From contig JAIRTH010000019.1 of NCBI GenBank assembly GCA_031255005.1, forward strand, positions 1-54,685: DNA of 54,685 nt, given 5' to 3'. Under the pieces are notes generated by a model. The model made no database searches. It saw only the letters and a program-made list of their open reading frames with translations, and was not told the DNA's origin. This DNA is from Puniceicoccales bacterium. Lineage in GTDB: Bacteria; Verrucomicrobiota; Verrucomicrobiia; Opitutales; LL51. Shown one piece after another: positions 35,253 through 54,685 of this stretch. The first letter of the stretch is position 1; each line of letters opens with the position of its first letter. Made by a program: the position numbers and the translations under genes.

Positions 35253-35626
35253 CAGGCCGAGGTACTGTTCTTTCTAAATTCGCGATTTTCCTTGACCTTC
35301 ATGGCACTTTTACCGATTCGGCCGCGGAGGTAATATAATTTCGCCCGCATGGGTACGCTTTCGCGTTCGACTTCTATTTTCATCACGTTTCGCGAATGGA
35401 CAGGAAATATCCTCTCGACACCTTCGCCAAAGGAAATTTTTCTAACGGTGAAAGTTTCGCCTATGCCATAGCCTTTCCGGCAGAGGACAATGCCAGCGAA
35501 AATCTGTATACGTTCTTTATCTCCTTCGCGCACTTTGACATGCACGCGTACACCATCACCAACTTTGAAATTATCACGATCTTTTATCAGCTGACAATCA
35601 GTCAATTCTTTTATAATAGGGTTCAT
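35252..35626 (-). CDS. rplS: 50S ribosomal protein L19
   Basis: [33 protein letters not shown]...[21 protein letters not shown]. It forms an ATGA overlap with trmD. Confidence 0.95.
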
Positions 35627-36297
35627 TTTTGTAAATCCTTGTTCCCTTCTAAGTGTTTTTTATCAGAATTCAACCATTTTCGAAAAATATCTGGTCTGCG
35701 CAACTCAGTTTTTTCAATCATCTGCCGAAGGCGCCATCTGTTTATTTCGATGTGGTTTCCCGATAGCAATACCTCTGGCACAGAAATTTCTTCGAATTTC
35801 ACCGGTCTAGTATACTGTGGAAATGATAGCAATCCGTTCGAGAAGCTGTCCTGGGTCAATGAGTTAGCGTTACCGAGGACGCCTGGTACGTATCTGCATA
35901 CTGCATCTGCTAGCACCGCCGAAGCCAGGGTTCCGTTGGTTATTATATAGTCACCAATGGAAATTTCCAAATTTACCCGAGATTTTCTTACCCTTTCGTC
36001 GATGCCTTCGTAATGCCCAGATAATAAAATCAGGTGTTTTTTTTGGGACAGCTCCTTGGCCAAGGCGGATGTTAACAGCTTGCCATCAGGGCACATATAT
36101 ATCACTATGGAGGTTTCTGTCCGAAATTTATCTATGGCTGAACATATTGGTTCGGCCTTCATGACCATACCAGCTCCGCCGCCGAATGGTCTATCGTCGG
36201 TTATTTTATGTTTGTCGGTGGCAAAATCGCGTATATTATAAACACCAAACTCAATCAATCCAGATTTTGTAGCTCTGCTCAATATGCTACAAGACAC
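35623..36297 (-). CDS. trmD: tRNA (guanine37-N1)-methyltransferase TrmD (coordinates follow the ORF-track GTG; the real start is probably upstream, see finding)
   Basis: [46 protein letters not shown] and [14 protein letters not shown]. The conserved N-terminal strand RIDFLSLFPQLL is encoded in frame upstream of 36297. Confidence 0.9.
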
Positions 36298-36346
36298 TAC
36301 GCCATCAAGTAGTTGCGGAAATAATGATAAAAAATCTATGCGTAAA

Positions 36347-36604
36347 TTAGGCAGACAATACTTTTCTCGAACGACGAATCAAAGTGCCAACGGTTTCCGT
36401 AGGCTTTGCTCCGACCCTAAGCCAATGATCAACCCGATCCATATCTAACATGAGCTCTGGGGCTTTGCCTCGGGCCTGAGGATCGTAGATTCCTAGTTTT
36501 TCGACAAAACGACCATCACGACGCCAAGAAGATTCCGCTACCACAATCTTGTATATAGGCTTATGTATAGCGCCATGACGCTGTAATCTGATTTTCAATG
36601 CCAT
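36347..36604 (-). CDS. rpsP: 30S ribosomal protein S16
   Basis: MALKIRLQRHGAIHKPIYKIVVAESSWRRDGRFVEKLGIYDP is classic S16. Confidence 0.95.
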   Translation of the reverse strand: MALKIRLQRHGAIHKPIYKIVVAESSWRRDGRFVEKLGIYDPQARGKAPELMLDMDRVDHWLRVGAKPTETVGTLIRRSRKVLSA

Positions 36605-36747
36605 AAAAATTTTTCTCTAAACTTTCCTTAAAGAAAAATGAAATGGAGGATCTGTCAAGCTATTTTGTTAGTCACTATAGGATCATTGGCATATTTTATA
36701 TTAAATTATATTGAAATATCATCTCGGTATAGTAGAATAACATAGGG

Positions 36748-38778
36748 ATGGTTGATATGGATGGAAGAAGTCTTGTCTTGATAGGGATGGTAATGGGACT
36801 ATCCCTATCAAGCTATGCCTTGGCCAATAAATACTTACATAATGCAAAAAATGGGCATACTTCGGAGAATAATCAGCCTGCATACGAAGATGATGATGAA
36901 GAGGCTTTGGCTGAATCCAAGACTAAGGTGAATCCTAAGGCGAGAAAATCTAGTGTGAAATCCGTGGCAAATGCTAGCAAAGAAGATAATGACGAAGAGG
37001 CTTTGGTTAAATCCAAGACTAAGGTGAATCCTAAGGCGAGAAAATCTAGTGTGAAATCCGTGGCAAATGCTAGCAAAGAAGATGATGACAAGACTTTGGT
37101 TAAATCCAAGACTAAGGTGAATCCTAAGGCGAGAAAATCTTGTGTGAAGTCCAGGAAATATATTTTGCCAAAAAAGAAGATAGATATAAACGAAAAGAAG
37201 ATAGATATAAACGAACAGTTATCATTTTATATATCTAAAAAGAAATCAGTGGGCATTGTTAACCCAGGGCCACCCAAGTATATTTTTGAAAAAGTATACC
37301 TATCCATCCAAGAACAGAAAGTGGACGCAGCGATGGTATTTTGCTGTTTCAAAACGGATGGTGGCATAAATGATAACTTTAAAATAGACTCGATACACAT
37401 AATCCTGAAAAATGGAGATGTATTTATTTCTTGTAACAAAAGAAAAAGTACAGAAATCCTAGATAAAAAATCACTGGATCAATTAATAGACAAAAATACT
37501 AAATGTTCGACGTTTTTAATGGTAATTGTCAATAATGCGGCCGTAAATTTTATAAAATTAAACGGTGAGGATGGCCAAGATAGAAACATTATGGCCATGT
37601 TGAGTTATATATTAAGGAAAAATAGATATTATAAATTTACATTAAATATATCTGACAGCAAAAGATCAGATCATAAAAATATCACTACCAGATCATATGA
37701 CTTATTACAAGGACAACCTACTAAATTAAATAGCCAAAGCAGTTCTGGAAAAATTATCTGGGAAAAAGTTAAATGCCTATCGCTGGGTTCGTATTGTTTG
37801 TGCAAAGAAGTAATAAAAAAAACCTATCCAATTATTGCCGGTGGCATAGGTATCTGCGTTAAGGGTCTTTTATTGCAAATCACGAAACCAAATGGTCCAA
37901 TTTTCAGCATTGCAGGTAGCATGGGTGACAAAATTTTATCAGGGTTAGAAAACATGGATAATAGCATTGGATCATTTGCAGCAGATAATATTCGTGGAAG
38001 TAAGTTGGGCAGAGAATTATTTTCGATGATCACTACTGGTCTATTTGGTGAATTTACTAATAAATACTTGGACAATTATTCAGATAACCAAATAAAATCA
38101 GGTCTAAATGACCAAGGCATTGTTAACAAGATGGTACATTCAACTGCTGGTTTATTCCGTAATGGACTCGATATATCAACCATGTCCATCACTGAGCCAA
38201 AATTCATTGAATTCATTTGTGATGTCACTAATATTGCCCTAAGTGCCATTGTGGGAGATAATAGCACAGATCGTTTTTTAGACAAAGATAATCCCGAGTA
38301 CCACAAATCCTGGTTTGCCATAGGGAAACAAAATTTTGCTAAAAAGTTAGGCATGTTACCTGGAGTGGGTGGATTTTTAAAAAATGCATTCGAAGATAAG
38401 GAAATGAGTCTAAAGGAAGCCCGTCAAGAAGAAGTTGCCCGAAGGGAAGATTACAAAAGAGCCAAAGATTGCTTGGATAGATATATAAAAAGAAAAAAGA
38501 CACAAGAAGATGATCCTACACTGAAAACTCTCAAATTAGCCATGGAAGTTGCTGAGCTTAGATCCATGAGAGCTGGATATAAAACCCAGATCATTGATTT
38601 TAAAATTGATAGCCAATCCTACCAAGATGAAACTAAAAAAAATAATATAGAAAAAAGCCTAAAAGATACGGAAAGTAATATTTATGATAAGAAAGCCGAA
38701 ATAATAAAAATTATGCAACAAAACAAATTGAAAATTTTGGATAATCTTAGGAAAAAATATGAAAATAACAATATATGA
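36748..38778 (+). CDS. orphan exported protein A (676 aa): signal peptide, Lys-rich tandem repeats, N-domain, central hydrophobic segment, coiled-coil C-terminus
   Basis: Long uninterrupted ORF in AT-rich DNA. N-terminus SLVLIGMVMGLSLSSYALA; 32/31-aa repeats; central YPIIAGGIGICVKGLLLQI; heptad-like Lys/Glu-rich tail. I recognise no family. Confidence 0.65.
   Translation: MVDMDGRSLVLIGMVMGLSLSSYALANKYLHNAKNGHTSENNQPAYEDDDEEALAESKTKVNPKARKSSVKSVANASKEDNDEEALVKSKTKVNPKARKSSVKSVANASKEDDDKTLVKSKTKVNPKARKSCVKSRKYILPKKKIDINEKKIDINEQLSFYISKKKSVGIVNPGPPKYIFEKVYLSIQEQKVDAAMVFCCFKTDGGINDNFKIDSIHIILKNGDVFISCNKRKSTEILDKKSLDQLIDKNTKCSTFLMVIVNNAAVNFIKLNGEDGQDRNIMAMLSYILRKNRYYKFTLNISDSKRSDHKNITTRSYDLLQGQPTKLNSQSSSGKIIWEKVKCLSLGSYCLCKEVIKKTYPIIAGGIGICVKGLLLQITKPNGPIFSIAGSMGDKILSGLENMDNSIGSFAADNIRGSKLGRELFSMITTGLFGEFTNKYLDNYSDNQIKSGLNDQGIVNKMVHSTAGLFRNGLDISTMSITEPKFIEFICDVTNIALSAIVGDNSTDRFLDKDNPEYHKSWFAIGKQNFAKKLGMLPGVGGFLKNAFEDKEMSLKEARQEEVARREDYKRAKDCLDRYIKRKKTQEDDPTLKTLKLAMEVAELRSMRAGYKTQIIDFKIDSQSYQDETKKNNIEKSLKDTESNIYDKKAEIIKIMQQNKLKILDNLRKKYENNNI
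36898..37152 (+). repeat. in-frame tandem repeat, 96/96/93-bp register, about 2.7 copies (plus a 21-bp x2 repeat at 37174-37215)
   Basis: atccaagactaaggtgaatcctaaggcgagaaaatct recurs at 36915, 37011 and 37104. It encodes (E/K)(E/T)AL(A/V)(E/K)SKTKVNPKARKS(S/C)VKSVANASKED(N/D)D. aagaagatagatataaacgaa is duplicated head-to-tail at 37174 and 37195. Confidence 0.9.
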
Positions 38779-38825
38779 TGGTGAATTTATGAGTTTAACT
38801 TTGGAAATGATAAAAGGAAACGAAA

Positions 38826-40574
38826 ATGAAAATAAAAACTAAAATATTAACTCTATATTTAATAACGGTAATATTATGTCACTTAGGTAGTTATACCCAT
38901 GCTTATTATGATTCTCAAAGCGAAGATGACGAATATTCAGAAGATTACAGCCAGCTGGAGGATTACGGCTGGCCAGAACGTAATAGTGAACCATTGCAGT
39001 TAAATAAATTTTCGAGAGCCAATGAAAATGCTTTTCCGTGTAATTTTATTAAAGAAAGTTACAAATTTAAATATGAAGACAATCAGGAATTTAGTAAATC
39101 TAGAAAGAATATTTGGAATGAAATATACAATTATATAGCCTTTTATAAACGAGCTGAAAACACAAATACCGAGCCTATAGATAGAGTTATTTTAGATGGA
39201 AAAGTAATTTTAAAAAATGAAACCATAGAATATATAGACATTATATATGCCACTGGAGATATCTATGTTTCATCTAGGGGTGGAAAAGATTTAGAGTATT
39301 TAAAACCGCAAACCAATGCTAAGTATAAACATTTTCATGGTAAAAAAGAATATTTTAGCTATGCAGAATTGCCGAGCTCTTCAGTGCCTTTAATCGTTTT
39401 GGAACATAAATCTCCCTATATGGACAAAAAAGTTTTTTATACGCAAAACATCAATGGTATTGGTAATTTCACGAATAAAATAAAGTCAACTAAGTTTAAA
39501 AAAATTGGTAATATAGAAGATTTTTTTGCGAAGGAACACGTGCCTTTGGAGCCGTCGGTATCTTACGGTACGCCTGCGTTTTTTAGGGCTACCGCTTCCA
39601 ATGTTGTTATTAATAGTCCGCAGTCGCCTGGTATATTGAGTCGCGCTTTGAAGGGCGCTGGTTCATTTATTTGGCGTAATAAAGATAAAATTGCGCTGAT
39701 AGGTTATTCAATTGCATCTAATTACTCTCCATTTATGCCACTCATTGCAAGCGGCATCAGATGTATCGCTGGTAAAAGGATTGATATCAATGGAAAAAGA
39801 ATACATAATATGGTCAATGTTGTGAAAGAATTAACAATGAAAGGAAAAAAAATTATTGATAGATTTGAATTTCTGAAAAAAGAATTCGATAAAATAACAG
39901 GTTTCTCTAGTTTTGGCCAATGGGGTATCTACAATAATATAAAGACAATTGAAACCACTGTCAGTGGCATCGTAAACCTAGTTGATCGTACTTGTAATTA
40001 TAAGAGCGATAGCGACGACGAAGATCTCAAAGACTATTTCGGAGATGAATATTGTGAGGGTTTAACCAAAGAAAGGAGAAAATTGATAAATGATATCAAT
40101 GATTTATATGATGATCCTAGTAAAGTATATGCTATGGACGTTGGTTATCTAAGGGTAATTTTAAATGACTTAAAAGGGCCAATTTTTGAGAGTTTGATAA
40201 ATATGGGTAAAAATTTTTCTTGGATGAAAGGTAGCTTTAGAGCGAAAAATGATACCAATGCTATAGCTTCTAATATTACCGAAAAATATATGATCTTTTA
40301 TCTGAATAATATTGTCAGGATGACATATTTGATGATAATAATTGACACTAAAATTGGCGAAAAAGAAGAAAATATTTTTAATAAATATAAAGAATATTTA
40401 AAATGCGATTTAATCGATGAATTTGAATATAACGAAGAGAAGAGTGATGCAAGTGTCAAAACTCTTCTTCTTGAGTATAATACACCAGAACTGAGAATTA
40501 ATCGTATCAAGGAATTAACCAAAAAAATTAAAAGAATTAGAGAAGAAATTAAAAAAACTAAGAAAAAAATATAA
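38826..40574 (+). CDS. orphan exported protein B (582 aa)
   Basis: AGGA Shine-Dalgarno 8 nt upstream. Signal-like KILTLYLITVILCHLGSYTHA; acidic stretch; central hydrophobic IALIGYSIASNYSPFMPLIASGIRCIAG; C-terminal module DYFGDEYC...LYDDP...ELTKKIKRIREEIKK. I recognise no family. Confidence 0.65.
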   Translation: MKIKTKILTLYLITVILCHLGSYTHAYYDSQSEDDEYSEDYSQLEDYGWPERNSEPLQLNKFSRANENAFPCNFIKESYKFKYEDNQEFSKSRKNIWNEIYNYIAFYKRAENTNTEPIDRVILDGKVILKNETIEYIDIIYATGDIYVSSRGGKDLEYLKPQTNAKYKHFHGKKEYFSYAELPSSSVPLIVLEHKSPYMDKKVFYTQNINGIGNFTNKIKSTKFKKIGNIEDFFAKEHVPLEPSVSYGTPAFFRATASNVVINSPQSPGILSRALKGAGSFIWRNKDKIALIGYSIASNYSPFMPLIASGIRCIAGKRIDINGKRIHNMVNVVKELTMKGKKIIDRFEFLKKEFDKITGFSSFGQWGIYNNIKTIETTVSGIVNLVDRTCNYKSDSDDEDLKDYFGDEYCEGLTKERRKLINDINDLYDDPSKVYAMDVGYLRVILNDLKGPIFESLINMGKNFSWMKGSFRAKNDTNAIASNITEKYMIFYLNNIVRMTYLMIIIDTKIGEKEENIFNKYKEYLKCDLIDEFEYNEEKSDASVKTLLLEYNTPELRINRIKELTKKIKRIREEIKKTKKKI

Positions 40575-40599
40575 AATAAACAATAAAATAGGAGGGATT

Positions 40600-43500
40600 A
40601 TGAGAACAAGAAAAATTATTTTAGGATTGTTATGGATAATACTATGTATCCCCAATACTAACGGCAATGGTAGTAATAGAGGGAGACGGAGTGATTATAA
40701 ATCTAAACAATTCGATAAAAGGTCTATGAATAGTTATGGATTGCAAGGAAGTCAAATACCTAACGGCAATGGTAGTAATAGCGGGGGATGGAGTGATTAT
40801 AAATCATTCTTGCCTCGTCGACGCTCTAATATGCCAAAACCTAAAAATATTTTTTCGCAAGAGATAGAAAGTTTCAAAGGAGTTTTTTGTGATATGTACA
40901 AAAGAATACCTGATTCTGATGAGCTATGCGTTTTATTAATACGCAATAATTCTGTTCAGGATAGAGAAGAAGTTAGATCGGTTAAAGATGCCTTAAAGGC
41001 TGATTTGATGTACATAATAATGAAAAATGGTTATGTATATAAGACCTTTCCAGATTATCGACATGAAGAGTATGCTAAATTTAATAAATTAGTGTATGAA
41101 TCTGCCAAATTGCTAGGAGAAAAAGGCAAATATTTAATATGTTCTATTACAAAAGGAGATAGCGGCATCAGCAATATTTCAGAACAAGATGGCCGCATTT
41201 ATAATATTCGTAATAATATGAACCAAAAAGCTTTATTTGATGAACAGGAAAATGACATAAGAAGTGATAGATTTAAATACTGTTGTGTCATATATAGTAT
41301 AAATGAACAGATGCCCATGGTCATGCCCAGTGGCATGAAGAAAAGGCCTATTAAGCGGAATGAGTCTATACCTACAATTGATACCTCAATGGACAGTTCT
41401 TTTAAATGGAAACCAGTTCAGCCCAATGCGCCGCAGCAAAGTAAATTTCAGAGAGCTTTTTCTTCGGTAAAGTCATTTGTTAAAGGACATAAAACTGCCA
41501 TAATAGTTGGAGCTGGTGCAGCGGCTAGTGCAGCCATTGGCGCATACTTTGGCCCGGAGATCAAAAATTTTGCATCATCCGCCTTTGGAAAATTGAAAGA
41601 TTATTTTGACAATGCCAAGGATAATCATAACCAGATACTGGGGATACCAGAGACACCAGCATTAGCGTCGTTTTCAGCCGAAAAATCATCGATAATACCA
41701 CCGACAGTGGTCACGCCAGAAACGCCATCAACGGCTCTGATGTTATATCAAGATGATCAATCTACCGCGGAGAAAGCTGCGAATTTCTTTAAATCAAATC
41801 CAAAAATAGTCATTCCATCGGAACAAAAAGTAGTCAGGATTGTCGAGGAAAGTAAACAGTTTAAAGAGAAGCAGAAAGAAAATCAGGAGAGGGAAGATGC
41901 CATGAAGGATGATATGAAAAAACTATACGGTAAAATAGGCTATATTAATAGCATAATAAACTCCGAAAATAATGAGCTAACTGGCATTGAAAATAAATAC
42001 AAAGAATATTTACGGGTTTTAACCAATGGAGCAAATGATCATAATGCATTGGTAGAGAAAAAGATAGATGAAGTTGGTAAGGAATATGTTGATTGGGTTA
42101 ACAACAATGTGGATGATTGTCAATATGCTTACAGAGCTAAAATAGATTCAGATGCTGGACTTATATACTCGGAAATGCTTCCCGATGGAGAAGGAAACCT
42201 AAAAGATCTATGTGAGGAATTTGATGATAAATATGGTAATGTAAAAGAATCTATGTTAGGTAGATATAATGAGGCTAAAAGAAAGTTTGATGCGTTATGT
42301 AAACGTTATTACTCAGTAAAGAAAAGTGCTATGGAATTAGGATACAGTGTTACAGAAATTATGGAAAAAAGGAAAAATCTGTTTATAAAAAATCCGTTTA
42401 TAAATGATGGATCAAGTGGTAACAGTACATTCTATACAGCTAATATAGTTAATGACGAAGTTAATGACGAAGTTAATGACAAAGTTAATGAAGGATCTAT
42501 TTGGTCCCGATTGGGTAATATGGTAAATTCTGTGAAAAAATCTGCAAGTGATACGGTAGAATTTATGAAAAAATCTGCAAATGATACGGTAGAATTTGTG
42601 AAAAACAAATATGATAATGTAACTCAAAATGTTGGGTCTAGTTTATCAGAACTTGAATCCAAGTTGAGGAATAATTTTAGTAGTTTAAATACGACTAATA
42701 ATATGACTAATGTTAGCTATAATTATACTAATAATACTACTACTAATGAACCTCAGTCCGAAAGTGATATGGCAAAACAAAATGAGCAACACCTATTAAG
42801 GTTGCTTGATGATGACTATTGGACTATGGATCGTGCAATTAAAGAGGTGAATGATGTTATTAGAAAATATAAGGAATATAATAAAATTTTAACCAATATC
42901 CTTAAGGAAGAAAACCAAAAAATGGCTATTACTAACCGTTTCAATGAAGCCAATGGTAAATATTCTGATCTGTTTGATAAGTCTTTTAATAAGTTTAATG
43001 AAATATTCGACATTAAATTAGATAAGGTTAAATCAATTGAGAAAGATCTCCGTCTGCTTGAGAGTCAAAAAATAGACTGTAATAGCTTAAGGAAAAAAAT
43101 GAATGAATATAATGTTAAACTTGATAATTTGAAAGTACTATGCGATAGCAGGCATGGATTGGAAATAGAAGCTAATAATCTTAAAAATGAAATTTTTATG
43201 AAATTAGAAAATATAGAGAACATTGACAAGGAGGATTTTGGGGAAAATTATTGTAGAAATATTACTGAGACAAAACGATCTATGATGGAAAAAGTTAGGT
43301 CGCTGTATTCCAATCCAGGAACGGCCCGCAATTTTACCTCCGAAGAGTTGGAAAAATTTTTTACAGAAATAGACACTATTAGAAATAGCATCCATAAATA
43401 TTCGAAAAAAATTAGTAAACATTTCAGCATGGAATACAACTATCGGAGAAAAATAGTCGATCTATCATTTCAGAGAATTTCGGCTCTATACTTTGTTATT

Positions 43501-43689
43501 GGAATAGCATTGGATAAGCTTGGCCATGCGAGATATGACACCAATGCTGATTCGGAGAATAGAGGAAAATATATCGATGGAGATGAACTAAATAAAATGG
43601 CTAGTAGAATACAAAGTGTCATTGATTTTAATAAAGAGATATATAATACCAGAAAATCCTCAGGCGCATATAAATATTTGGATTATTAA
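40600..43689 (+). CDS. orphan exported protein C (1029 aa), coiled-coil rich
   Basis: Strong GGAGG Shine-Dalgarno. Signal-like MRTRKIILGLLWIILCIPN; NGNGSN..SDYKS duplicated; central TAIIVGAGAAASAAIGAYFG; long heptad-like regions; internal repeats; C-terminal FGENYC...LYSNP module. I recognise no family. Confidence 0.7.
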   Translation: MRTRKIILGLLWIILCIPNTNGNGSNRGRRSDYKSKQFDKRSMNSYGLQGSQIPNGNGSNSGGWSDYKSFLPRRRSNMPKPKNIFSQEIESFKGVFCDMYKRIPDSDELCVLLIRNNSVQDREEVRSVKDALKADLMYIIMKNGYVYKTFPDYRHEEYAKFNKLVYESAKLLGEKGKYLICSITKGDSGISNISEQDGRIYNIRNNMNQKALFDEQENDIRSDRFKYCCVIYSINEQMPMVMPSGMKKRPIKRNESIPTIDTSMDSSFKWKPVQPNAPQQSKFQRAFSSVKSFVKGHKTAIIVGAGAAASAAIGAYFGPEIKNFASSAFGKLKDYFDNAKDNHNQILGIPETPALASFSAEKSSIIPPTVVTPETPSTALMLYQDDQSTAEKAANFFKSNPKIVIPSEQKVVRIVEESKQFKEKQKENQEREDAMKDDMKKLYGKIGYINSIINSENNELTGIENKYKEYLRVLTNGANDHNALVEKKIDEVGKEYVDWVNNNVDDCQYAYRAKIDSDAGLIYSEMLPDGEGNLKDLCEEFDDKYGNVKESMLGRYNEAKRKFDALCKRYYSVKKSAMELGYSVTEIMEKRKNLFIKNPFINDGSSGNSTFYTANIVNDEVNDEVNDKVNEGSIWSRLGNMVNSVKKSASDTVEFMKKSANDTVEFVKNKYDNVTQNVGSSLSELESKLRNNFSSLNTTNNMTNVSYNYTNNTTTNEPQSESDMAKQNEQHLLRLLDDDYWTMDRAIKEVNDVIRKYKEYNKILTNILKEENQKMAITNRFNEANGKYSDLFDKSFNKFNEIFDIKLDKVKSIEKDLRLLESQKIDCNSLRKKMNEYNVKLDNLKVLCDSRHGLEIEANNLKNEIFMKLENIENIDKEDFGENYCRNITETKRSMMEKVRSLYSNPGTARNFTSEELEKFFTEIDTIRNSIHKYSKKISKHFSMEYNYRRKIVDLSFQRISALYFVIGIALDKLGHARYDTNADSENRGKYIDGDELNKMASRIQSVIDFNKEIYNTRKSSGAYKYLDY
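42448..42600 (+). repeat. in-frame micro/minisatellites inside ORF C: 12-bp unit x4 (42448-42495) and 33-bp unit x2 (42535-42600)
   Basis: gttaatgacgaa gttaatgacgaa gttaatgacaaa gttaatgaagga encodes (VNDE)2 VNDK VNEG. aaaaaatctgcaa(g/a)tgatacggtagaattt(a/g)tg x2 encodes KKSASDTVEFM KKSANDTVEFV. Confidence 0.9.
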
Positions 43690-43715
43690 AAAATCTAGTT
43701 GTTAAAACTGATGCC

Positions 43716-43763
43716 GGCCAGAATAGGATTTCCCTATTATCCAAGGGAAAATTTATTCTGGCC
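43716..43763 (+). other. 48-nt near-perfect hairpin between ORF C and ORF D (possible terminator/attenuator or RNA processing site)
   Basis: In GGCCAGAATAGGATTTCCCT-ATTATCCA-AGGGAAAATTTATTCTGGCC I paired, by hand, 17 Watson-Crick pairs, 2 G-U pairs and 1 mismatch over 20 positions, with an 8-nt loop. No U-tract follows. Confidence 0.5.
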
Positions 43764-43807
43764 TAAATGTGTTTGCAATTGAATCGGTATTTAATAGAAT
43801 TTTTAAC

Positions 43808-45229
43808 ATGGAAATGCGAAAAATAGGGAAAATTATCTTAGGTTTACTATGGATAATATTATGTATGCCAAATTCTAATGGTAGTTATAGTGATCGGCAT
43901 GAATTTCCTAAGATAGAGCAAAAATATAGCATAGTTAATAGAGTGAAAAATTTTTTCACTTCATCTAGAGTTGCTAGCCTAGGCCTAACTGAGAAGGCAA
44001 AAGAATTGATCGAGACAGTAAGAGGTTTTGGCGAAGATATGATCGAAAGAGTAAGAAGAACTGAAAAATCAAAGGATATGATCATAGGTAAGGATTTGTG
44101 TAAGCGTTTAGATTCTTTTATAGAAAGGATATCGAATGCAATAATAAATATTTCCACAACTATAGATGATATGCAAAAGGTCCGCAGATGTATTACTGAC
44201 GAAACGGCATTTAGTAACATTGAAGACTCGAAGGGAAAGTACTATGAAGCCATTGGAGAGCTTTGCAGAAAATATATGGTATATAGATGTCGTGATTATA
44301 ATGAAATTAAAGAAATGTACGACAGCATAAGGTTAAGAAAGATTAAAGAAATAAGCGATGATATACATAATTTTGAGGAAACATATAAAAAAGAAGGAAA
44401 AAATGATAAAAATTTATATGAAATAAATAAGCGGTTTGAGATTTTTATTAATAAATATAACAAGTTTAGAGATATAGTAGATGAAATGATTTGGGAAATT
44501 TGTGCAATTAGAGGAAGTGCTATAATGATAATGACTCAATTGCTCGAAGAAATTGAAGAGTGTAAGATACAAGATTCATTGCCAGATATAAATGCTTCGT
44601 TGTCGAAAAATTTATTTAAAAGATTTTTTAATACGAGAGGAAATGAGAATGAGATACATGATATGCTCAATTTCTTTCAAGAAAAAATTAAAATGATAGA
44701 CGATAATATTGCTAAGTTTGATGCAATATTTGACAGAATAATAGAAGGTAATGGCGGTGACAGGGAAGCATTTGAAGCAGTAATTAAAAACTATGCTGAT
44801 ATGAAGTCTTTTGAAAATGTTAAGCATATTTTTGATGTTTATAAAAATGCTGAAAAATATATGGTGAATAGCTTTGAATCTTACTGTCGATTGGAGAAAA
44901 GATATGGTATATTTGCGAAATGGCACAATAAACTAAGAGAGAATGTCTTGAATTTTTGTACTAAATTTAGGAATAATATAGAAAAGTCTTATGAGTGGAA
45001 TAGCTATAAAATGATGTATGAAAAATTTTACTCGCAGAGGTATAAAATAAATAAAATAGCAATGAAAGTTTCAAGAATGATGATAATGACGGAACTTTCT
45101 GGGATAAGCGATGCTGGTTTTGAAAAATATAATGTAGGCGATAAGGTCGTAGAAATACTAAGTGAAATTGTATCGAAAGATTTAAGCAAAGCGCTAAAGG
45201 AAGAGCATGAAAATTTCTGTGAAAAGTAA
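43808..45229 (+). CDS. orphan exported protein D (about 473 aa), all-helical/coiled-coil
   Basis: Start set at ATG 43808 (MEMRKIGKIILGLLWIILCMPNSNG) because this N-terminus is near-identical to that of ORF C. The ORF-track GTG at 43769 abuts the hairpin. I recognise no family. Confidence 0.6.
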   Translation: MEMRKIGKIILGLLWIILCMPNSNGSYSDRHEFPKIEQKYSIVNRVKNFFTSSRVASLGLTEKAKELIETVRGFGEDMIERVRRTEKSKDMIIGKDLCKRLDSFIERISNAIINISTTIDDMQKVRRCITDETAFSNIEDSKGKYYEAIGELCRKYMVYRCRDYNEIKEMYDSIRLRKIKEISDDIHNFEETYKKEGKNDKNLYEINKRFEIFINKYNKFRDIVDEMIWEICAIRGSAIMIMTQLLEEIEECKIQDSLPDINASLSKNLFKRFFNTRGNENEIHDMLNFFQEKIKMIDDNIAKFDAIFDRIIEGNGGDREAFEAVIKNYADMKSFENVKHIFDVYKNAEKYMVNSFESYCRLEKRYGIFAKWHNKLRENVLNFCTKFRNNIEKSYEWNSYKMMYEKFYSQRYKINKIAMKVSRMMIMTELSGISDAGFEKYNVGDKVVEILSEIVSKDLSKALKEEHENFCEK

Positions 45230-45321
45230 TCTTTTAAAAATGATGAACTAGCATGAAATGATCTTATTTTCGTAGGCATGCTTACCGTTGAACAATATTT
45301 AATAGAATTTTAAAAAAAATT

Positions 45322-45903
45322 ATGAAAGCAAAAATATTAATTTTTGGGTTGATGTTGGGATTAGGTATCACTAGTCATGGCTTTTGCGCTAAAACAAAAG
45401 GTAAATGCCATCTGAATGGGACTCAGGATGAAGATGTCTATGTCACTTCAGATATTTTCAATAGGTACGTAAAATATTTCGGATTTTCCTATTGCAACCA
45501 TTTAACTCGGCGAAAGATCGAAACCATGGATTGGTTGATGGAACTATATGTTAATCCAGAAAAGCTAATGGATATGGATAAAAATAATCTCATTAAAATA
45601 TCTGGTGAGATTCAATCCCAAATTGGTCCCCATCTTCGTAGCCTCGATTCGGCTAACGATCCATCTCCTCAGTCTCTATGGCGCCAAATTAATATGAGGA
45701 CCGAATACCTATTTCTGGCGACATTAATGGTACTGAAAAAATATACAAAAAGAAGTTCTATCGATGGCGATCATAACCACTGGGTGGAGTATTTTGATGA
45801 ATTTAATTGCAGTAAATATCAAACTTTGGATGAGCTAATGAATCACGTCAAGGAACTAACCAAAGAGATCGAAGAAATGATGAAAAAAGAGAACAAATTG
45901 TAA
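45322..45903 (+). CDS. orphan exported protein E (193 aa): signal peptide plus a stand-alone copy of the B/C C-terminal module
   Basis: MKAKILIFGLMLGLGITSHG, then KYFGFSYCNHLTRRKIETMDWLMELYVNPEKL...HVKELTKEIEEMMKK, which aligns with the C-terminal regions of ORFs B and C. Confidence 0.6.
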   Translation: MKAKILIFGLMLGLGITSHGFCAKTKGKCHLNGTQDEDVYVTSDIFNRYVKYFGFSYCNHLTRRKIETMDWLMELYVNPEKLMDMDKNNLIKISGEIQSQIGPHLRSLDSANDPSPQSLWRQINMRTEYLFLATLMVLKKYTKRSSIDGDHNHWVEYFDEFNCSKYQTLDELMNHVKELTKEIEEMMKKENKL

Positions 45904-45918
45904 TGATTTATCCATATC

Positions 45919-45994
45919 TGGTGCGAGCGAAGGGGTTCGAACCCTCAACATCCACCTTGGCAAGGTGGCACTCTGCCAATTGAGTTACGCTCGC
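45919..45994 (-). tRNA. tRNA-Gly (anticodon GCC), CCA encoded
   Basis: The reverse complement reads GCGAGCG TA ACTC AATTGGCA GAGT G CCACC TTGCCAA GGTGG ATGTT GAGGG TTCGAAC CCCTT CGCTCGC A CCA. This is a full cloverleaf with anticodon loop TTGCCAA. Confidence 0.95.
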
Positions 45995-46611: not shown

Positions 46612-47916
46612 ATGTGGCGGTTTATTTGCATAATAAAACCCATGAATGGGTATGGAAAAATGATCGGTTTTAGCCTTTTATCTTTTTTGACGATAGTGGG
46701 CAATACAGATAGTTATGGTAACTCTCATTGCTGTGGTGATAAAGCTATGGATTGTGGAATGATTGATTGCAGCATTGATTGTGACAAATTATGTTCCTAT
46801 GATTCAGGTTGCAACGAGTCAATGAATGGCGTACCATACAATGGTAAAGTGTGTTTCAATGTGCAGAAACATGGAAAAACATGCTATGGTAAAATATGTT
46901 ATGATGTAATATGCTATGATAAATGCCAAAAAAAATGCCAAAAAAAATGCAAGAGCTTCTGTGGAAAATACAAGAATACCAGAAAATGTAAAAAATATGA
47001 AAAAAAATGCAAAGATGACAAAATAGAAAAAATAGTGGAATTATGGATGACTCCACAAAATCACAGCGACAACCTCGATTCGGTGGCCTGTGCAGGTAAT
47101 AGGATCTACGTCACCGCCAAAAATGATCATACCATCCAGATGTACGATGCGAGAAATGGCGTTCCCCTTGGGAGATTTGGCGGTAAGGGCGATGACATGG
47201 GCCAATTAAATAGGCCAAATGGAGTTGCAGCCATTGACAATCTGCTCTTTGTTACCGAAAGAGATAACTCCAGGATTCAGGTATTTTCTATTCCGGATTA
47301 TGCCCATATTTGTACCTTTGGTGAAGATATTCTATTTAGGCCCTATGGTATCTTCGTCTGTAAGGTCGATGACTATTATTTGGTATATATCACCGATGAT
47401 GGTAAGACCAAGAAGTCCGAAAATGATGATGCCCGGAGGATAGTCACCTTTATTTTGGATGAAGAAATGAATCAGATGGATCCATTGCAGTTTGGCATTA
47501 AGGATGAATTTGGTGTCGGAGAATTTGGGAAGCTTGAATCGATCTATGGTAATCTGGATAATAAAACACTGTTGATTGCTGATGAAAAATCTAATGAATT
47601 GAAATTATATTCTTTTGATGGTGAATATCTTAATAAAAAAATTAACAGCGAATTCTTTTCCCAAGGAGACCCAGAAGGTGTATGGTTTTTCAAAAAAGAC
47701 GGACGATCCTATTGGCTTGCTGTGGAGCAAAGAAAAAAGAAAACAACCATATTTCATGTTTTTGATGCTCAAACTCTCGCGCATGTAAAATCCTTCTCAG
47801 GCATATACACAAAGAATACAGACGGCATATGCATCAGTGAAATGAATGGTAGATTGATTTTGTATGCAGTTAATGATGACCAGGCAGTGACAGCGTTTTC
47901 ATTGGACTTCATATAG
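46612..47916 (+). CDS. exported protein with a Cys/Lys-rich N-terminal region and an NHL- or phytase-like beta-propeller
   Basis: Signal-like MIGFSLLSFLTIVG (the real start may be ATG 46642 or 46660). By my count, about 17 Cys lie between 46720 and 47023 (CQKKCQKKCKSFCGKYKNTRKCKKYEKKC). Propeller-blade-like repeats follow (GQLNRPNGVAAIDNLLFVTERDNSRIQVFS; LLIADEKSNELKLYSFDG; GDPEGVWFFKKDGRSYWLAVEQ). Confidence 0.55.
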   Translation: MWRFICIIKPMNGYGKMIGFSLLSFLTIVGNTDSYGNSHCCGDKAMDCGMIDCSIDCDKLCSYDSGCNESMNGVPYNGKVCFNVQKHGKTCYGKICYDVICYDKCQKKCQKKCKSFCGKYKNTRKCKKYEKKCKDDKIEKIVELWMTPQNHSDNLDSVACAGNRIYVTAKNDHTIQMYDARNGVPLGRFGGKGDDMGQLNRPNGVAAIDNLLFVTERDNSRIQVFSIPDYAHICTFGEDILFRPYGIFVCKVDDYYLVYITDDGKTKKSENDDARRIVTFILDEEMNQMDPLQFGIKDEFGVGEFGKLESIYGNLDNKTLLIADEKSNELKLYSFDGEYLNKKINSEFFSQGDPEGVWFFKKDGRSYWLAVEQRKKKTTIFHVFDAQTLAHVKSFSGIYTKNTDGICISEMNGRLILYAVNDDQAVTAFSLDFI

Positions 47917-47986: not shown

Positions 47987-49120
47987 ATGTATTTATGGTA
48001 TAGAGTCTTATTGGTCACATGTCTATGGTTTGCGGTAAATTGTAAAGCCGAAGTAGAATTAACTATAAAAACAGAAAATGATGAAGAAATTAGGTTAGAT
48101 AATATAGAGCTACATAGTAAGAGGATTAATAAGTTATTAAAAACCTATAACCGAGTAGTCGTAAAAATTCCTTTCGAATATAAGAAAGCATTGCCACTGG
48201 CGATGGCAGCGTTTTACCAGAATATAGAAGGAAATTCTAATATAGAACTAGATATGTCAAATTTATCCACAGATGATAATCTTTTCACTGAAGATTATTA
48301 TGAAAATTTAGGTCTTAATTTTATTAGCCATAACCATATTATAGATCTCAGTCATGCAATTGACGAAAAACCAGTGGTATTCATTATCAAAGATGAGCAT
48401 ATTAGCTCTTTCATCAAGAAAAAGAAGAGTTCGCGCCTATGCAATATTCCATCTGTTGGAGATGAAAATCAATCTAATATACTCAGTAAATTTGAGGGCC
48501 TAGATGATGCCATCTGGTTATTGAAATTTAATAATAGTTTAATCGATGGTGACCTATGTATTCTGATTAAAGACCATAAAGTGCCTGATCAGGATACACC
48601 GGAGGAAGTTTTCAATAACTATGAAGATAATGTTAGCGATGAGTATGACGAACCCAGTGAAGAATTGTCAGAAAACGAAAGCTATATGAGGCAAAGACCA
48701 AAAAAAACAATACATAAATATTTCAATGAGGAAGACCAGCCCCATGATTCATGGTATTCAGTCAAAAAGACCATGCAGGTATTGGGATCGGATGCGGCCA
48801 AAAAATGTTATATCGGTGTTGGTACCATGATTGGTGTCATGGCATTGTATTGCTATTATCCAAAAATTGTCTCAGTAACTTGTAAAATTTTTGATAAAAT
48901 CACTTCGGCTTCGAAGTGCGGTATGATTTCTATTTATGATGGATATAAATCAATATACAATTTTATTGGAAATTTGTTGTGCCGACCGGATGATGGCAAA
49001 TCAAAATCCGCAAATGAGTCTGCAAATGAGTCTGCAAATGAGTTCATATATAAATCAGGATCCATAGATAATCCTGACGGAACATTTATATGTACAAGGT
49101 GTAAAAAGGTTTATAAATGA
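47987..49120 (+). CDS. orphan exported/membrane protein F (377 aa)
   Basis: Signal-like VLLVTCLWFAVNCKAEV; acidic tract PEEVFNNYEDNVSDEYDEPSEELSENES; one hydrophobic segment KKCYIGVGTMIGVMALYCYY; 12-bp tandem repeat gcaaatgagtct x about 3 at 49010-49045 (ANES ANES ANEF); C-terminal CTRC. Confidence 0.6.
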   Translation: MYLWYRVLLVTCLWFAVNCKAEVELTIKTENDEEIRLDNIELHSKRINKLLKTYNRVVVKIPFEYKKALPLAMAAFYQNIEGNSNIELDMSNLSTDDNLFTEDYYENLGLNFISHNHIIDLSHAIDEKPVVFIIKDEHISSFIKKKKSSRLCNIPSVGDENQSNILSKFEGLDDAIWLLKFNNSLIDGDLCILIKDHKVPDQDTPEEVFNNYEDNVSDEYDEPSEELSENESYMRQRPKKTIHKYFNEEDQPHDSWYSVKKTMQVLGSDAAKKCYIGVGTMIGVMALYCYYPKIVSVTCKIFDKITSASKCGMISIYDGYKSIYNFIGNLLCRPDDGKSKSANESANESANEFIYKSGSIDNPDGTFICTRCKKVYK

Positions 49121-51465: not shown

Positions 51466-52515
51466 ATGGACGCAAAAAATGTTTTATTAATATCTCTGTT
51501 AGGATTAACGAATGTTTGTGATTGTCAGGCTAGATGCCCGTTAGTAGAGCGGAGCTATGATGAATTATCGTGTTATGATATTGATGATAGCATCAGTGAG
51601 CCGGTGGACCGTAATTTATATAGTCTTACCTATGGCATATTTGGCGTTCTAGATTTAGAGACTTTAGATGAGTGTGTGTTATATTTTATAGAAGAAAAAG
51701 CTGGTGTTCTCAGCGATGATCTGTGTGAAAATTTAGAAATTGATTGGAAATATATAGTAAAATACATCTTTTGTGAGACGAAAACAGTAGACAATATTAA
51801 TGAGCTTGTAGATAAAGCAATTTATAAGCTGAATCCTGCTATGGACCCTGAATTAGCGGAATATTCTCAATCTGTAGTAAGTGAATGTGAAAGTCTATAC
51901 AATGAATTGATAGAGGGATTAAGTCATGATGAATATCAAGCCTATATCAATAAGCATGATCTGCATTTGAATAAGCTTTCGGGTGGTCTATCTATGTCTC
52001 GAGATTTAACTACATTGCGTAAAGTTGTAAACATTCTTGTGGCCAAAAAAGACAATATGCCTGGTTATTGTATGCCAGAAAATGAGAATGTTGACTGGGA
52101 GGCTGTGCTAAGATATCTTTTTAATGTATTAAGAAAAAATCATACTATTTATAGTCTTATGCATCGAATGGTTGAAGATCTTGATTCCCGGTATCCGTCT
52201 TTGTATAATGAACTTGTAAGAGAATGTGATGAGAATGAATTTCAGTTATACCGCAAAATAACGGATATGAATGATAGCATGATTGATTATGGTTTTTCAT
52301 GCGAAAATGACGATTCTTTCAATGGAAAAATTAAAATTTTATTGGAAAATATTTTAATTCATGCAACCGATGAGAATAGATTAAATAATATTTCGAAAGA
52401 TATAATATTAGATTATATTCAAAATAAAGATGTAGTGCTCTATAATGAATTACAAAATAGAATCAATGAAATTAGAGAAATGCTTAAAATCCATGGAGGA
52501 TTGATAATTTTTTAA
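51466..52515 (+). CDS. orphan exported protein G (349 aa), acidic, with three internal LYNEL-ending repeats
   Basis: N-terminus MDAKNVLLISLLGLTNVCDC. Repeat anchors are ESLYNELIEGLSHDEYQAY, PSLYNELVRECDENEFQLY and VVLYNELQNRINEI. The N-terminus is paralogous to the partial ORF at 54621. Confidence 0.6.
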   Translation: MDAKNVLLISLLGLTNVCDCQARCPLVERSYDELSCYDIDDSISEPVDRNLYSLTYGIFGVLDLETLDECVLYFIEEKAGVLSDDLCENLEIDWKYIVKYIFCETKTVDNINELVDKAIYKLNPAMDPELAEYSQSVVSECESLYNELIEGLSHDEYQAYINKHDLHLNKLSGGLSMSRDLTTLRKVVNILVAKKDNMPGYCMPENENVDWEAVLRYLFNVLRKNHTIYSLMHRMVEDLDSRYPSLYNELVRECDENEFQLYRKITDMNDSMIDYGFSCENDDSFNGKIKILLENILIHATDENRLNNISKDIILDYIQNKDVVLYNELQNRINEIREMLKIHGGLIIF

Positions 52516-52598: not shown

Positions 52599-54449
52599 AT
52601 GGATGGATGTAATAAAAATAATAAGAAAATACTTGTGGGAGCTATTTTGTTAATGATTGCGAAAGCTTCAATATATGGTGAAGGTAGTGGCCCTAGTAAT
52701 GCTTTTGCGAATAGAATTAAGATGTTTAATGTCCAGAACAAAGAAAATGTTGGACCAAGCCCGAAAGCATTTGTGCGCAACAATCCAGCTGTATCTAGCT
52801 CTCTAAAGGAAAGGGCTAAGATGTTTGATAATGGGCATGAAATAAAAACGTTCAGAAGCAATCATGGTAGTGTTGTAAATAATAGGCCCATTAATACTCA
52901 GCCAAACCCTAGGCCGAATGTAACTCATTATAATACTGACAATAACAGGGCTCTCGTTGACGAAAGAAAAAAAATACTGAAAGAGAGAGCAGAAGATGTT
53001 ATTAGAAAAAGGGCTGAATTATTGAAAATAGATGAGAATGCGGAAAAACCAATATATAGAAATGACGAAAGAGCAAAAGAAAGCGTAGAAATTTACGCTC
53101 AGAATAAAGTTGAGGAAATGACCGAGGCGGAAAAAATAGCATTTCTAAAGGCGTTGGCAGAAGCGGCCGTTCCTAAAAGTCGTGAATTTAAAGATATAAG
53201 GGATAAAAAACTAGCAAAAGAAAAAAAGAGATATGAAAAAGAGGAAAAATACTTAATAAGTCAAGAGCCATCCATTTTCGCATTATTAGGTGAAAAGTTG
53301 AGTTATATTGGGAATTCGAAATTAAATGTTCCTGTCTATTTGGCTAATCTTACCGAAGCACAGAAATTGGAAAATTTCCCAAGGCCGACCATAAGTCCAA
53401 ATCAATACAGAAGTATTATACTCCAAGAAACCAATCTATTGAGCGCTGATGAGCAAAAGGCTCTGCGAAGAGATGTGGAATCCATTTTTTCGCTATCTTT
53501 GAGAATTGGAGAAAGCCTCAGAAAGATTGCACGCGATTTTCATGGGAAAAAAGCAAAGGTTTTTGAGTCCCAAAATCAGCCTCAGATGGAAAAAGTTTTT
53601 GATGAGCTATTTGAACAGATCGATGCAAAGGTTTTTGCGATCAGGTCCGAAGAGCTAGGGCCCTATATTTCCGGTGCAAAATTTGATCAGATAAAACTTC
53701 TTGTTCTAAGGCAACAGGAAGCTTATCTAAGATCCCAATACCAGGTCATGGAGTTTCTTGGATCTCAATTATCAGTGGATGATCAGGCTGTGCTTAGTGT
53801 ATTTAATGAACTATCCAGCTATAATAGAGGTAATATCCACTATACCGGTAGTTTAAGCGATTTGGTAGAACGTGAATTTGGCTATAGAGTATCTGAATGT
53901 CCAGATATTATGATAGACAAAAATTTTGTTATTAGCATAAATTCTATTGTAAATGCGACAAAAAACAAATCGATCAACGTGGCCAGAAGGATTGCTAAAC
54001 GGCGTACGGATTTGGCAGATGATTTAGCCTTTAGAGAATTGATAGAGAACCTTGGTTTTTGGGCCAATGCGACAAGAAATGTGAATAGAAAAATTATAAA
54101 TTTCTGTGAAAGAATATCTTTACCGTCGGTCGATAGCCAGTTGTTTGATCATCAACTTCATGGTCATTTCATAAAAATGATTGACAGATTTCCCTTCTTA
54201 GATCTGTTTGATATGTCACGTTACAGTGATGTGCATACCATGGCGAAAGGAACTCTAATGAGAATGACTAAAGAAGTTTTAAATGCCATTAAAACCTTTA
54301 ACCAATGTGAAGTTCCGTCCAATGAATGCAATAATTTCATCAATGGCCTAAAATCCCTCATAGAAGAAATTGTATTAATTCCTTTTGCATCCCGTAAATT
54401 GCAGGAAAAAATCGCTGATGTTAGGAATTTCTTAATTAATGGTGAATAG
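52599..54449 (+). CDS. orphan exported protein H (616 aa)
   Basis: AGGA Shine-Dalgarno 8 nt upstream. Signal-like KKILVGAILLMIAKASIYG; Pro/Asn-rich linker with a duplicated R(I/A)KMF(N/D) motif; Lys/Glu-rich helix; then a large helical domain. A hairpin terminator follows. Confidence 0.65.
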   Translation: MDGCNKNNKKILVGAILLMIAKASIYGEGSGPSNAFANRIKMFNVQNKENVGPSPKAFVRNNPAVSSSLKERAKMFDNGHEIKTFRSNHGSVVNNRPINTQPNPRPNVTHYNTDNNRALVDERKKILKERAEDVIRKRAELLKIDENAEKPIYRNDERAKESVEIYAQNKVEEMTEAEKIAFLKALAEAAVPKSREFKDIRDKKLAKEKKRYEKEEKYLISQEPSIFALLGEKLSYIGNSKLNVPVYLANLTEAQKLENFPRPTISPNQYRSIILQETNLLSADEQKALRRDVESIFSLSLRIGESLRKIARDFHGKKAKVFESQNQPQMEKVFDELFEQIDAKVFAIRSEELGPYISGAKFDQIKLLVLRQQEAYLRSQYQVMEFLGSQLSVDDQAVLSVFNELSSYNRGNIHYTGSLSDLVEREFGYRVSECPDIMIDKNFVISINSIVNATKNKSINVARRIAKRRTDLADDLAFRELIENLGFWANATRNVNRKIINFCERISLPSVDSQLFDHQLHGHFIKMIDRFPFLDLFDMSRYSDVHTMAKGTLMRMTKEVLNAIKTFNQCEVPSNECNNFINGLKSLIEEIVLIPFASRKLQEKIADVRNFLINGE

Positions 54450-54620: not shown

Positions 54621-54685
54621 ATGAGTACAAAAAATGTCCTATTGATGTCCCTATTGGGATTGACTAATGTTTATAATTGTTATGC
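54621..54685 (+). CDS. 5' end of a paralogue of orphan protein G (runs off the window)
   Basis: ATG at 54621 translates to MSTKNVLLMSLLGLTNVYNCY, 15/21 identical to the ORF G N-terminus MDAKNVLLISLLGLTNVCDCQ. It is not in the ORF track because no stop is reached. Confidence 0.45.
   Translation, partial: MSTKNVLLMSLLGLTNVYNCY

Follow-up and report, generated by a model that had tools for sequence, protein, structure and literature searches.

A stretch of 54,685 nucleotides (nt) from a Puniceicoccales bacterium (contig JAIRTH010000019.1; the window hereafter) carries five co-directional open reading frames (ORFs) on the + strand, here genes A to E, between rpsP and the 3' end of a tRNA-Gly(GCC) gene. 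An earlier reading of the bare sequence (the original prediction) had described this arrangement and its spacers, and ORF calling across the 54.7-kb window, together with ARAGORN and Rfam, bears it out: A-B, B-C, C-D and D-E are separated by 47, 25, 118 (from ATG 43808) and 92 nt, and 15 nt lie between the E stop codon and the tRNA gene. Its statements that all five genes open with signal-peptide-like N-termini and that none belongs to a known family also held, the first by a crude rule and the second in Pfam, NCBIfam, PHROGs, PADLOC and PDB sequences. The genes are real, given reading frames that stay open for as many as 1029 codons at ~30% GC; they are restricted to one clade, related to each other through shared modules, and under selection. 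We consider it probable that the products of the block form a family of Sec-exported proteins, limited to one uncultured low-GC group of Opitutae, that is inherited vertically and evolves fast.

Architecture, shared modules and expression signals

Gene A most likely begins at ATG 36757 (MDGR...), a start that agrees with its orthologue on a related contig, L243 (described below), and with the called gene of 673 amino acids (aa). For gene D, ATG 43808 is the most likely start. E is publicly annotated as P0002 (183 aa), a call that begins at an internal Met (45352) and loses the signal peptide; the longer ORF of 193 aa is supported by its upstream region and first codons (MKAK..., common to both genes), which are 80% identical at the DNA level to those of the L243 B orthologue over 65 nt (window 45294-45357).

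Each N-terminus from A to E combines positive charge, a hydrophobic region and a small-x-small site. The same crude rule is positive for three orphans beyond the tRNA gene (H377, J349 and K616) and for 7 of 34 core genes, most of the latter encoding true membrane or exported proteins; by it, A to E appear to carry type I (Sec) signal peptides. A canonical lipobox, [LVI][ASTVI][GAS]C, is absent from all five. In B, C and D and in the L243 B and C orthologues, residue 16-19 of the signal peptide is a conserved Cys in an I-L-C or A-L-C context (Table 1); this may represent a non-canonical lipobox or just a residue kept within the hydrophobic region. A canonical LLGC lipobox was seen in another gene of the window, encoding a glucosaminidase.

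Behind its signal peptide, A has three 32-aa K/S-rich tandem repeats, a beta-rich N-domain, a moderately hydrophobic central segment and a conserved all-helical C-terminal half, a layout whose secondary structure is taken from a low-confidence AlphaFold2 (AF2) model. B continues with an acidic linker, the N-domain (~aa 91-176), a central region and a C-module (aa 385-582). In C, two 34-aa NGNGSN repeats are followed by the N-domain (~aa 89-176), a hydrophobic segment (aa 300-318), a long heptad-rich helical region and the C-module (aa 861-1026). D is helical and heptad-rich beyond its signal peptide, with neither N-domain nor C-module detected, and E consists of a signal peptide and a stand-alone C-module (aa 35-192). 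The tandem repeats that follow the signal peptide in A, in C and in their L243 orthologues are each different; at the position of the 96-nt repeat of A, for instance, the A orthologue carries an unrelated repeat of 201 nt in 2.2 copies. The repeats appear to have expanded independently of each other within a linker that is free of constraint.

Long heptad-like stretches had been noted in the proteins generally, and this part of the original prediction stands for C and D: by a home-made score, heptad periodicity covers 241 residues in C against 11 +/- 19 in shuffles (z ~12) and 100 in D against 9 +/- 16 (z ~6). It is weak in B and E and was not found in A. The central, moderately hydrophobic stretches span 18-28 residues, with basic residues ahead of them in A, C and H377; the stretch is degenerate in B and the B orthologue, and charged residues interrupt it in A, the A orthologue and the B orthologue. 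Neither the sequences of A to E nor Pfam reveal a recognisable outer-membrane or C-terminal sorting signal. The C-terminal beta-barrel translocator of autotransporters likewise has no Pfam match, and the C-termini are predicted to be helical.

Two domains tie array members to each other. The beta-rich N-domain is common to A, B, C and their orthologues and is marked by the motif I-x-I-I-x-K-N-G-D-V-Y; the L243 B orthologue has two copies. Hidden Markov models (HMMs) of this domain, built with one group left out at a time, placed the left-out proteins first and at the correct position (E 2e-5 to 6e-3 in a 44-protein database), and the N-domain DNA of A and C is 71% identical over 58 nt. The second domain is the all-helical C-module of ~160 aa common to B, C and E, with invariant F-G-x-x-Y-C, L-T and L-Y-x-N/D-P motifs and a hydrophobic helix; in A and D it is not detectable.

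Likeness between the genes extends to their 5' ends. The signal peptides of C and D are near-identical, KIILGLLWIILC(I/M)PN, with 77% DNA identity over 73 nt, and the C signal peptide resembles that of D, a paralogue, more closely than it does that of the L243 C orthologue, which points to duplication or conversion after the lineages split. A promoter element, ATTTAATA(G/A)AATTTT, is common to D, E and the L243 B orthologue, with a TTGCAA -35-like box in D and the B orthologue. J349 and a J-like ORF truncated at the window end likewise have upstream region and signal peptide in common, with ~60% identical columns in their aligned DNA. The locus had been proposed to be internally recombining. 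The sharing of modules and 5' cassettes is real; support for recombination is weak, and because the pieces in common are short and have by now diverged, old duplication and shuffling fits as well as ongoing recombination.

A promoter-like site stands ahead of A in the 143-nt region that is divergently shared with rpsP, and the upstream region, including TTGAAATA, is kept ahead of the L243 A orthologue. B has a GGA-type ribosome-binding site and C a GGAGG site. In the C-D spacer, a stable stem-loop that has no clear U-tract probably marks the end of an A-B-C transcription unit, with a putative terminator role. Upstream of D, a second promoter-like site falls within the motif ATTTAATAGAATTTT, of which an exact copy recurs upstream of E. 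The -10-like TAGAAT ends only 7 nt (D) and 13 nt (E) ahead of the ATG and neither gene has a Shine-Dalgarno sequence, so the D and E mRNAs may be leaderless or nearly so. The simplest reading of these signals would be an A-B-C operon followed by D and E, each expressed from its own promoter as a nearly leaderless message.

Relatives, inheritance and selection

Contig L243 (JGI 3300042636, 4971 bp) carries rpsP on the - strand, 85% identical in protein to that of the window, and then, on the + strand and in the same order, orthologues of A, B and C. The A orthologue (707 aa) is 40% identical to A; the B orthologue is colinear with B over its full length, at 27.5% identity by tblastn and 32% by MAFFT; and the first 47 codons of the C orthologue lie at the contig end. 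The array had become fixed beside rpsP before the split of the two sampled lineages. This gene order, and identities well below that of rpsP, indicate that the array is clade-specific, inherited in place and faster-evolving than the core genes. Synteny in relatives had been proposed as a check on the locus. The relatives that we examined are two short contigs, L243 and L244, with synteny next to rpsP seen in L243 only; in more distant Opitutae rpsP-trmD-rplS is kept, but neither the array orphans nor tRNA-Gly adjoin it.

Over the conserved core of A, aligned without gaps to L243 across 187 aa, the proportions of nonsynonymous (pN) and synonymous (pS) differences are 0.28 and 0.59, giving a nonsynonymous-to-synonymous ratio (dN/dS) of ~0.31; the ratio for rpsP is 0.07. 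These values show the core to be under purifying but relaxed selection.

The reading frame of the L243 B orthologue is interrupted by three stops within ~40 codons (TGA, TAA and TGA; 4279-4395 of that contig). The first TGA takes the exact place of the conserved FGxxYC Cys, and past the stops the frame is open and B-like for ~120 further codons. Possible causes of the stops are recent pseudogene formation, a split gene and errors in the reads. Selenocysteine insertion or other recoding at the TGA was rejected, given the TAA and second TGA within 40 codons. L244 (JGI 3300042620) holds fragments like the C-terminal part of C and helical K/E-rich fragments, followed by ACT and PGM genes in the order of the window but without a tRNA in between. 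In this stretch (L244 1-3644) the ACT gene lacks its 5' half, the PGM gene is frameshifted and tRNA-Gly is missing, which suggests a degraded genome or a poor assembly.

Profile and structure searches, also proposed as a check, brought no confident homology of the array proteins to characterised families. A to E have no match in Pfam, NCBIfam, PHROGs or PADLOC, and the same four collections hold none for H377, J349 and K616; sub-threshold matches to Dynactin_p22, ribosomal L3, the Pol II small subunit and coronavirus spike HR lay far below cut-offs and were set aside as noise. Searches of PDB sequences with single proteins and with an A profile gave nothing with E < 0.1. In a word-index search of 5.8 billion clusters, the A profile found one homologue only, the L243 orthologue, and B alone and C alone returned only the window's own proteins; that search also missed the L243 B orthologue (~27% identity), and its nulls are no proof of absence. 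An exhaustive search of 1.84 billion representatives, confined to the C-module HMM, yielded five proteins: B, C, E and the fragments P0004 and P0005 (L243, L244). Nothing was found in two scans of JGI metagenome contigs (the first with poor patterns), in genome contigs of species representatives scanned with B and the A core, in one scan of viral contigs, or by tblastn against plasmids and phages.

Surroundings of the array and its host lineage

Housekeeping genes crowd the leftmost 36 kb of the window, among them those for PNPase and H+-PPase as well as murE, uvrD, mutS, ruvC, tyrS, dnaX, dnaB, bamA, prmC and rplS-trmD-rpsP, and this part also holds a gene of LptA/LptD type for lipopolysaccharide transport with an adjacent ABC ATPase gene. 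trmD lies on the - strand left of the array, beside rpsP; the operon has no rimM between the two, and the intergenic gap is just 49 nt. A GspF-like gene in the window scores 249 bits, below the NCBIfam cut-off of 424, and its product could come from a type IV pilus instead of type II machinery.

Table 1. Positions of the array genes, their sequence features and neighbouring elements (window coordinates unless L243 is named)
Feature	Position	Strand	Description
Gene A	36748..38778	+	676 aa ORF; 673 aa from probable start 36757
Gene B	38826..40574	+	582 aa ORF
Gene C	40600..43689	+	1029 aa ORF
Gene D	43808..45229	+	473 aa from ATG 43808; ORF opens at GTG 43769 (486 aa)
Gene E	45322..45903	+	193 aa ORF
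Promoter-like site of A	36711..36738	+	TTGAAA-16-TAGAAT; 10/12 consensus matches; putative function
Tandem repeat in A	36886..37152	+	Tandem Repeats Finder (TRF): 96 nt, 2.8 copies, 94% matches; just after signal peptide
Conserved core of A	37861..38421	+	aa 372-558; motifs PNGPIFSIAG and GDNxTDRFLDKxNPEY; 51% identity to orthologue, ungapped
Stem-loop, C-D spacer	43705..43774	+	Inverted repeat; fold -35.8 kcal/mol, z = -5.2, 0/200 shuffles as stable
Promoter-like site of D	43773..43800	+	TTGCAA-16-TAGAAT, within shared motif; putative function
Shared motif upstream of E	45297..45311	+	Identical to the motif upstream of D
Signal peptides with conserved Cys	38826-38900, 40600-40670, 43808-43880		Window
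Signal peptides with conserved Cys	2869-2940, 4831-4900		L243
rpsP (ribosomal protein S16)	36347..36604	-	TIGR00002, 95.9 bits; left anchor, divergent from array
rpsP operon	35623-36604	-	rpsP and trmD
tRNA-Gly(GCC)	45919..45994	-	ARAGORN and Rfam; convergent with E
G434	46612-47916		Signal peptide and NHL-repeat region
H377	47987..49120	+	Low-GC signal-peptide orphan past tRNA; hydrophobic segment; weak match to B central region
J349	51466-52515		Low-GC signal-peptide orphan
K616	52599-54449		Low-GC signal-peptide orphan
J-like ORF	~54624-54685		Truncated at window end
Glucosaminidase gene	21134-21784		LLGC lipobox

To the right, tRNA-Gly is a neighbour of the array and not the boundary of an island. 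Past it come at least four further low-GC signal-peptide orphans, H377, J349, K616 and the truncated J-like ORF, which in this right third of the window lie among core genes (an ACT-domain gene, an NHL-repeat gene, PGM and tRNA-Ser). H377 matches the central region of B with E = 0.013 in the 44-protein database, as the top match outside the training set, and may belong to the array family. G434 encodes a signal peptide, a Cys/Lys-rich low-complexity stretch with short tandem CQKK.. units and an NHL-repeat region, a possible beta-propeller.

Among 185,579 species-representative genomes, none encodes a MutS more than 55% identical to that of the window; the best matches are metagenome-assembled genomes (MAGs) of Puniceicoccales and Opitutales, and searches with TrmD and PPase agree with this placement. 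The nearest loci, from termite-gut Puniceicoccales MAGs, have 39-43% GC, like the window, and other Opitutae loci have 51-68%. These matches and the locus GC place the organism, by sequence, in an uncultured low-GC lineage of Verrucomicrobiota, class Opitutae, near Puniceicoccales, that is unrepresented among the species-representative genomes searched. An identical strain is present in one other read set, SRR14710884.

Possible roles and comparison with known systems

The most likely role of the array proteins, judging from their sequences, would be that of Sec-exported envelope or host-interface proteins. The original prediction had offered an exported host-interaction, surface-antigen or envelope function, and this remains the most reasonable guess. 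We envision that the array grew in place via tandem duplication and module shuffling. A-B-C would be transcribed as one operon from the rpsP-divergent promoter, ending at the hairpin, and D and E from their own TAGAAT-type promoters. The proteins would cross the inner membrane via Sec, and their variable repeat linkers and helical or coiled-coil parts would then act at the envelope or outside the cell, possibly after onward export by type II-type machinery, the GspF-like gene of which would be that in the window. As surface proteins, or proteins at the interface with host or environment, they would be subject to selection that is relaxed or diversifying. Weak or diversifying selection would show in their rapid divergence, in the variable linkers and in the shuffling of 5' cassettes.

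Several observations weigh against this account. No domain, motif or fold ties A to E to any characterised system, and the Sec assignment was made by the crude rule alone. The N-domain has an hhalign probability of 4% alongside weak HMM scores, and among protein parts D is tied to the other members by its signal peptide alone. Structure prediction gave little to build on. For A (2-row alignment), AF2 reached a predicted local distance difference test (pLDDT) score of 34.5, and the model is unusable; for E (3-row alignment) it gave an all-helical model with a pLDDT of 55.4, a confidence too low to use, and the best Foldseek match of that model in the PDB (E 2.7) is meaningless. The stops in the L243 B orthologue and the fragmentation of L244 indicate that parts of the family are dispensable or decaying. 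Lastly, the host association of the organism is a guess, drawn from its low GC, its divergence and the broken genes seen on related contigs.

Alternatively, A to E could be envelope housekeeping or scaffold proteins, either periplasmic or tethered to the inner membrane through their central hydrophobic segment, that build a lineage-specific envelope structure and do not act on a host or on neighbouring cells. Basic residues precede that segment in A, C and H377, the long heptad-rich helices of C and D are of the kind found in structural scaffolds, and a fixed, vertically inherited place beside core genes would suit such a role, as would the lack of a recognisable C-terminal outer-membrane or sorting signal in A to E. 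However, the proteins diverge very fast, at 27-40% identity against 85% for rpsP, their repeat linkers are unlike between orthologues, the L243 B orthologue carries in-frame stops, and neither B nor the B orthologue keeps the hydrophobic segment as a transmembrane helix, all of which would be unusual for essential structural parts. We regard a scaffold role as unlikely, though it deserves to be taken seriously beside the exported, fast-evolving family that we favour.

A more specific version of the exported family would be a hitherto undescribed system of a low-GC, Puniceicoccales-like clade at the interface with host or prey, in which modular Sec-exported proteins would insert into a foreign or outer membrane. 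The beta-rich N-domain, a hydrophobic hairpin, the coiled coil and the Cys-containing helical C-module would supply the working parts; the proteins would be counterparts in function of the chlamydial Inc proteins, with another export route, diversifying by swapping modules and promoter-signal-peptide cassettes. Taken as a whole, this chain of assumptions strikes us as improbable, more so than the scaffold.

The original prediction had seen in the layout the geometry of an island at the 3' end of a tRNA gene, while stating, correctly, that there was no integrase, transposase or att-like repeat. A horizontally acquired block integrated at tRNA-Gly would account for the composition of the array, for its end 15 nt from the tRNA gene and for the absence of homologues beside rpsP in more distant Opitutae. 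The array is indeed low in GC: its genes range from 0.30 to 0.36 and average 0.327, and 34 core genes range from 0.363 to 0.468 and average 0.415 (p = 1.7e-6), although the contrast is smaller than had been estimated by hand, and the gap persists at four-fold-degenerate third positions (GC3, 0.338 against 0.483), so that amino-acid composition alone does not explain it. Intergenic DNA of the window has 24-32% GC. The array of L243, at 0.28-0.38 against 0.44 at rpsP, is low in GC too, and composition is thus no pointer to recent import. The low GC is best explained, on general knowledge of AT-biased drift, by weakly constrained sequence drifting to an AT-rich mutational equilibrium.

The same gene order beside rpsP in the divergent L243 largely refutes the island, and L244 has no tRNA at the corresponding place. 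Similar low-GC orphans resume past tRNA-Gly, contrary to the claim that the array ends there. No integrase or transposase was found in the block by Pfam, NCBIfam or PHROGs, and neither strand has another long ORF there; the 25-nt 3' end of tRNA-Gly is unique in the window at <=3 mismatches, and a repeat search was likewise negative. No phage, plasmid or other genome searched holds a donor homologue. Of the four features that define such islands, atypical composition alone is present, and we consider integration at the tRNA gene very unlikely.

Hardly better placed, and if anything a shade worse, is the notion that A to E are effectors of a type III or type IV secretion system (T3SS or T4SS), inserted into a host membrane as are chlamydial Inc proteins or the coiled-coil effectors of Legionella. 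The array proteins are lineage-specific, low in GC, coiled-coil-like and clustered, and the central hydrophobic segment of several can be read as a helical hairpin. But they carry classical Sec-type N-terminal signal peptides, which, to our knowledge, Inc proteins and Dot/Icm substrates do not; their hydrophobic segments are short and poorly conserved; and the 54.7-kb window holds no T3SS or T4SS gene. Least credible of all is decaying or neutral sequence, former genes without present function, which the three stops of the L243 B orthologue, the fragmented L244, orphan status, weak constraint and a GC content near that of intergenic DNA might suggest, but against which stand five intact ORFs of 193-1029 codons where base composition predicts a chance stop at ~1 codon in 13, a dN/dS of ~0.3 in the A core, and conserved ribosome-binding sites and promoter motifs.

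If its proteins are exported as predicted, no other lineage-specific feature of the 54.7-kb window is as visible as this locus, which would offer a good point of departure for studying how the uncultured Opitutae clade interacts with its surroundings or host; beyond this it is an ordinary example of a fast-evolving exported orphan family. It also illustrates how low GC, orphan status and a neighbouring tRNA gene can mimic a genomic island, where a single 5-kb contig from a relative showed fast, vertical evolution in place.

The closest analogues in behaviour, on general knowledge of these systems, appear to be the paralogous lipoprotein families of Borrelia (Erp/OspE-F-Elp and Mlp, with their 'upstream homology box') and the PFam54 array of lp54. 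Both these families and the present array would be clusters of exported, largely helical, fast-evolving and lineage-restricted paralogues in which a promoter and signal-peptide cassette is shared and the mature parts differ. Unlike the Borrelia proteins, to which they have no sequence similarity, A to E lack a canonical lipobox, in place of which a conserved 'ILC' occurs in the hydrophobic region, and their genes lie in a verrucomicrobial host, on a core chromosomal contig beside rpsP, with no plasmid or prophage match.

Chlamydial Inc proteins offer a second parallel, in that they too come from the Planctomycetes-Verrucomicrobia-Chlamydiae (PVC) superphylum and are clustered and lineage-specific, with a hydrophobic segment followed by a coiled coil, often sub-genomic GC and no known domains. 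Inc proteins are known to depend on a T3SS, to lack a Sec signal peptide and to have a bilobed hydrophobic domain of ~40-60 residues, at least 40; the array proteins begin with Sec-type signal peptides, their hydrophobic segment is short and varies between members, and no T3SS gene accompanies the genes in the window. With tRNA-linked integrative islands the array has atypical composition and adjacency to a tRNA 3' end in common, but it differs in having neither integrase nor att site, in being kept in place in a divergent relative and in having similar genes past the tRNA.

Like type II secretion substrates of the PVC group and other Gram-negatives, the array proteins show a Sec signal peptide as their only visible sorting signal, and a GspF-like platform gene lies in the window; unlike them, they fall into no recognisable substrate family, and export beyond the periplasm is a possibility drawn from the genes alone. 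Membership in any described family is unsupported. The family is new, but it joins a well-known kind, the clustered, fast-evolving and lineage-specific families of exported proteins.

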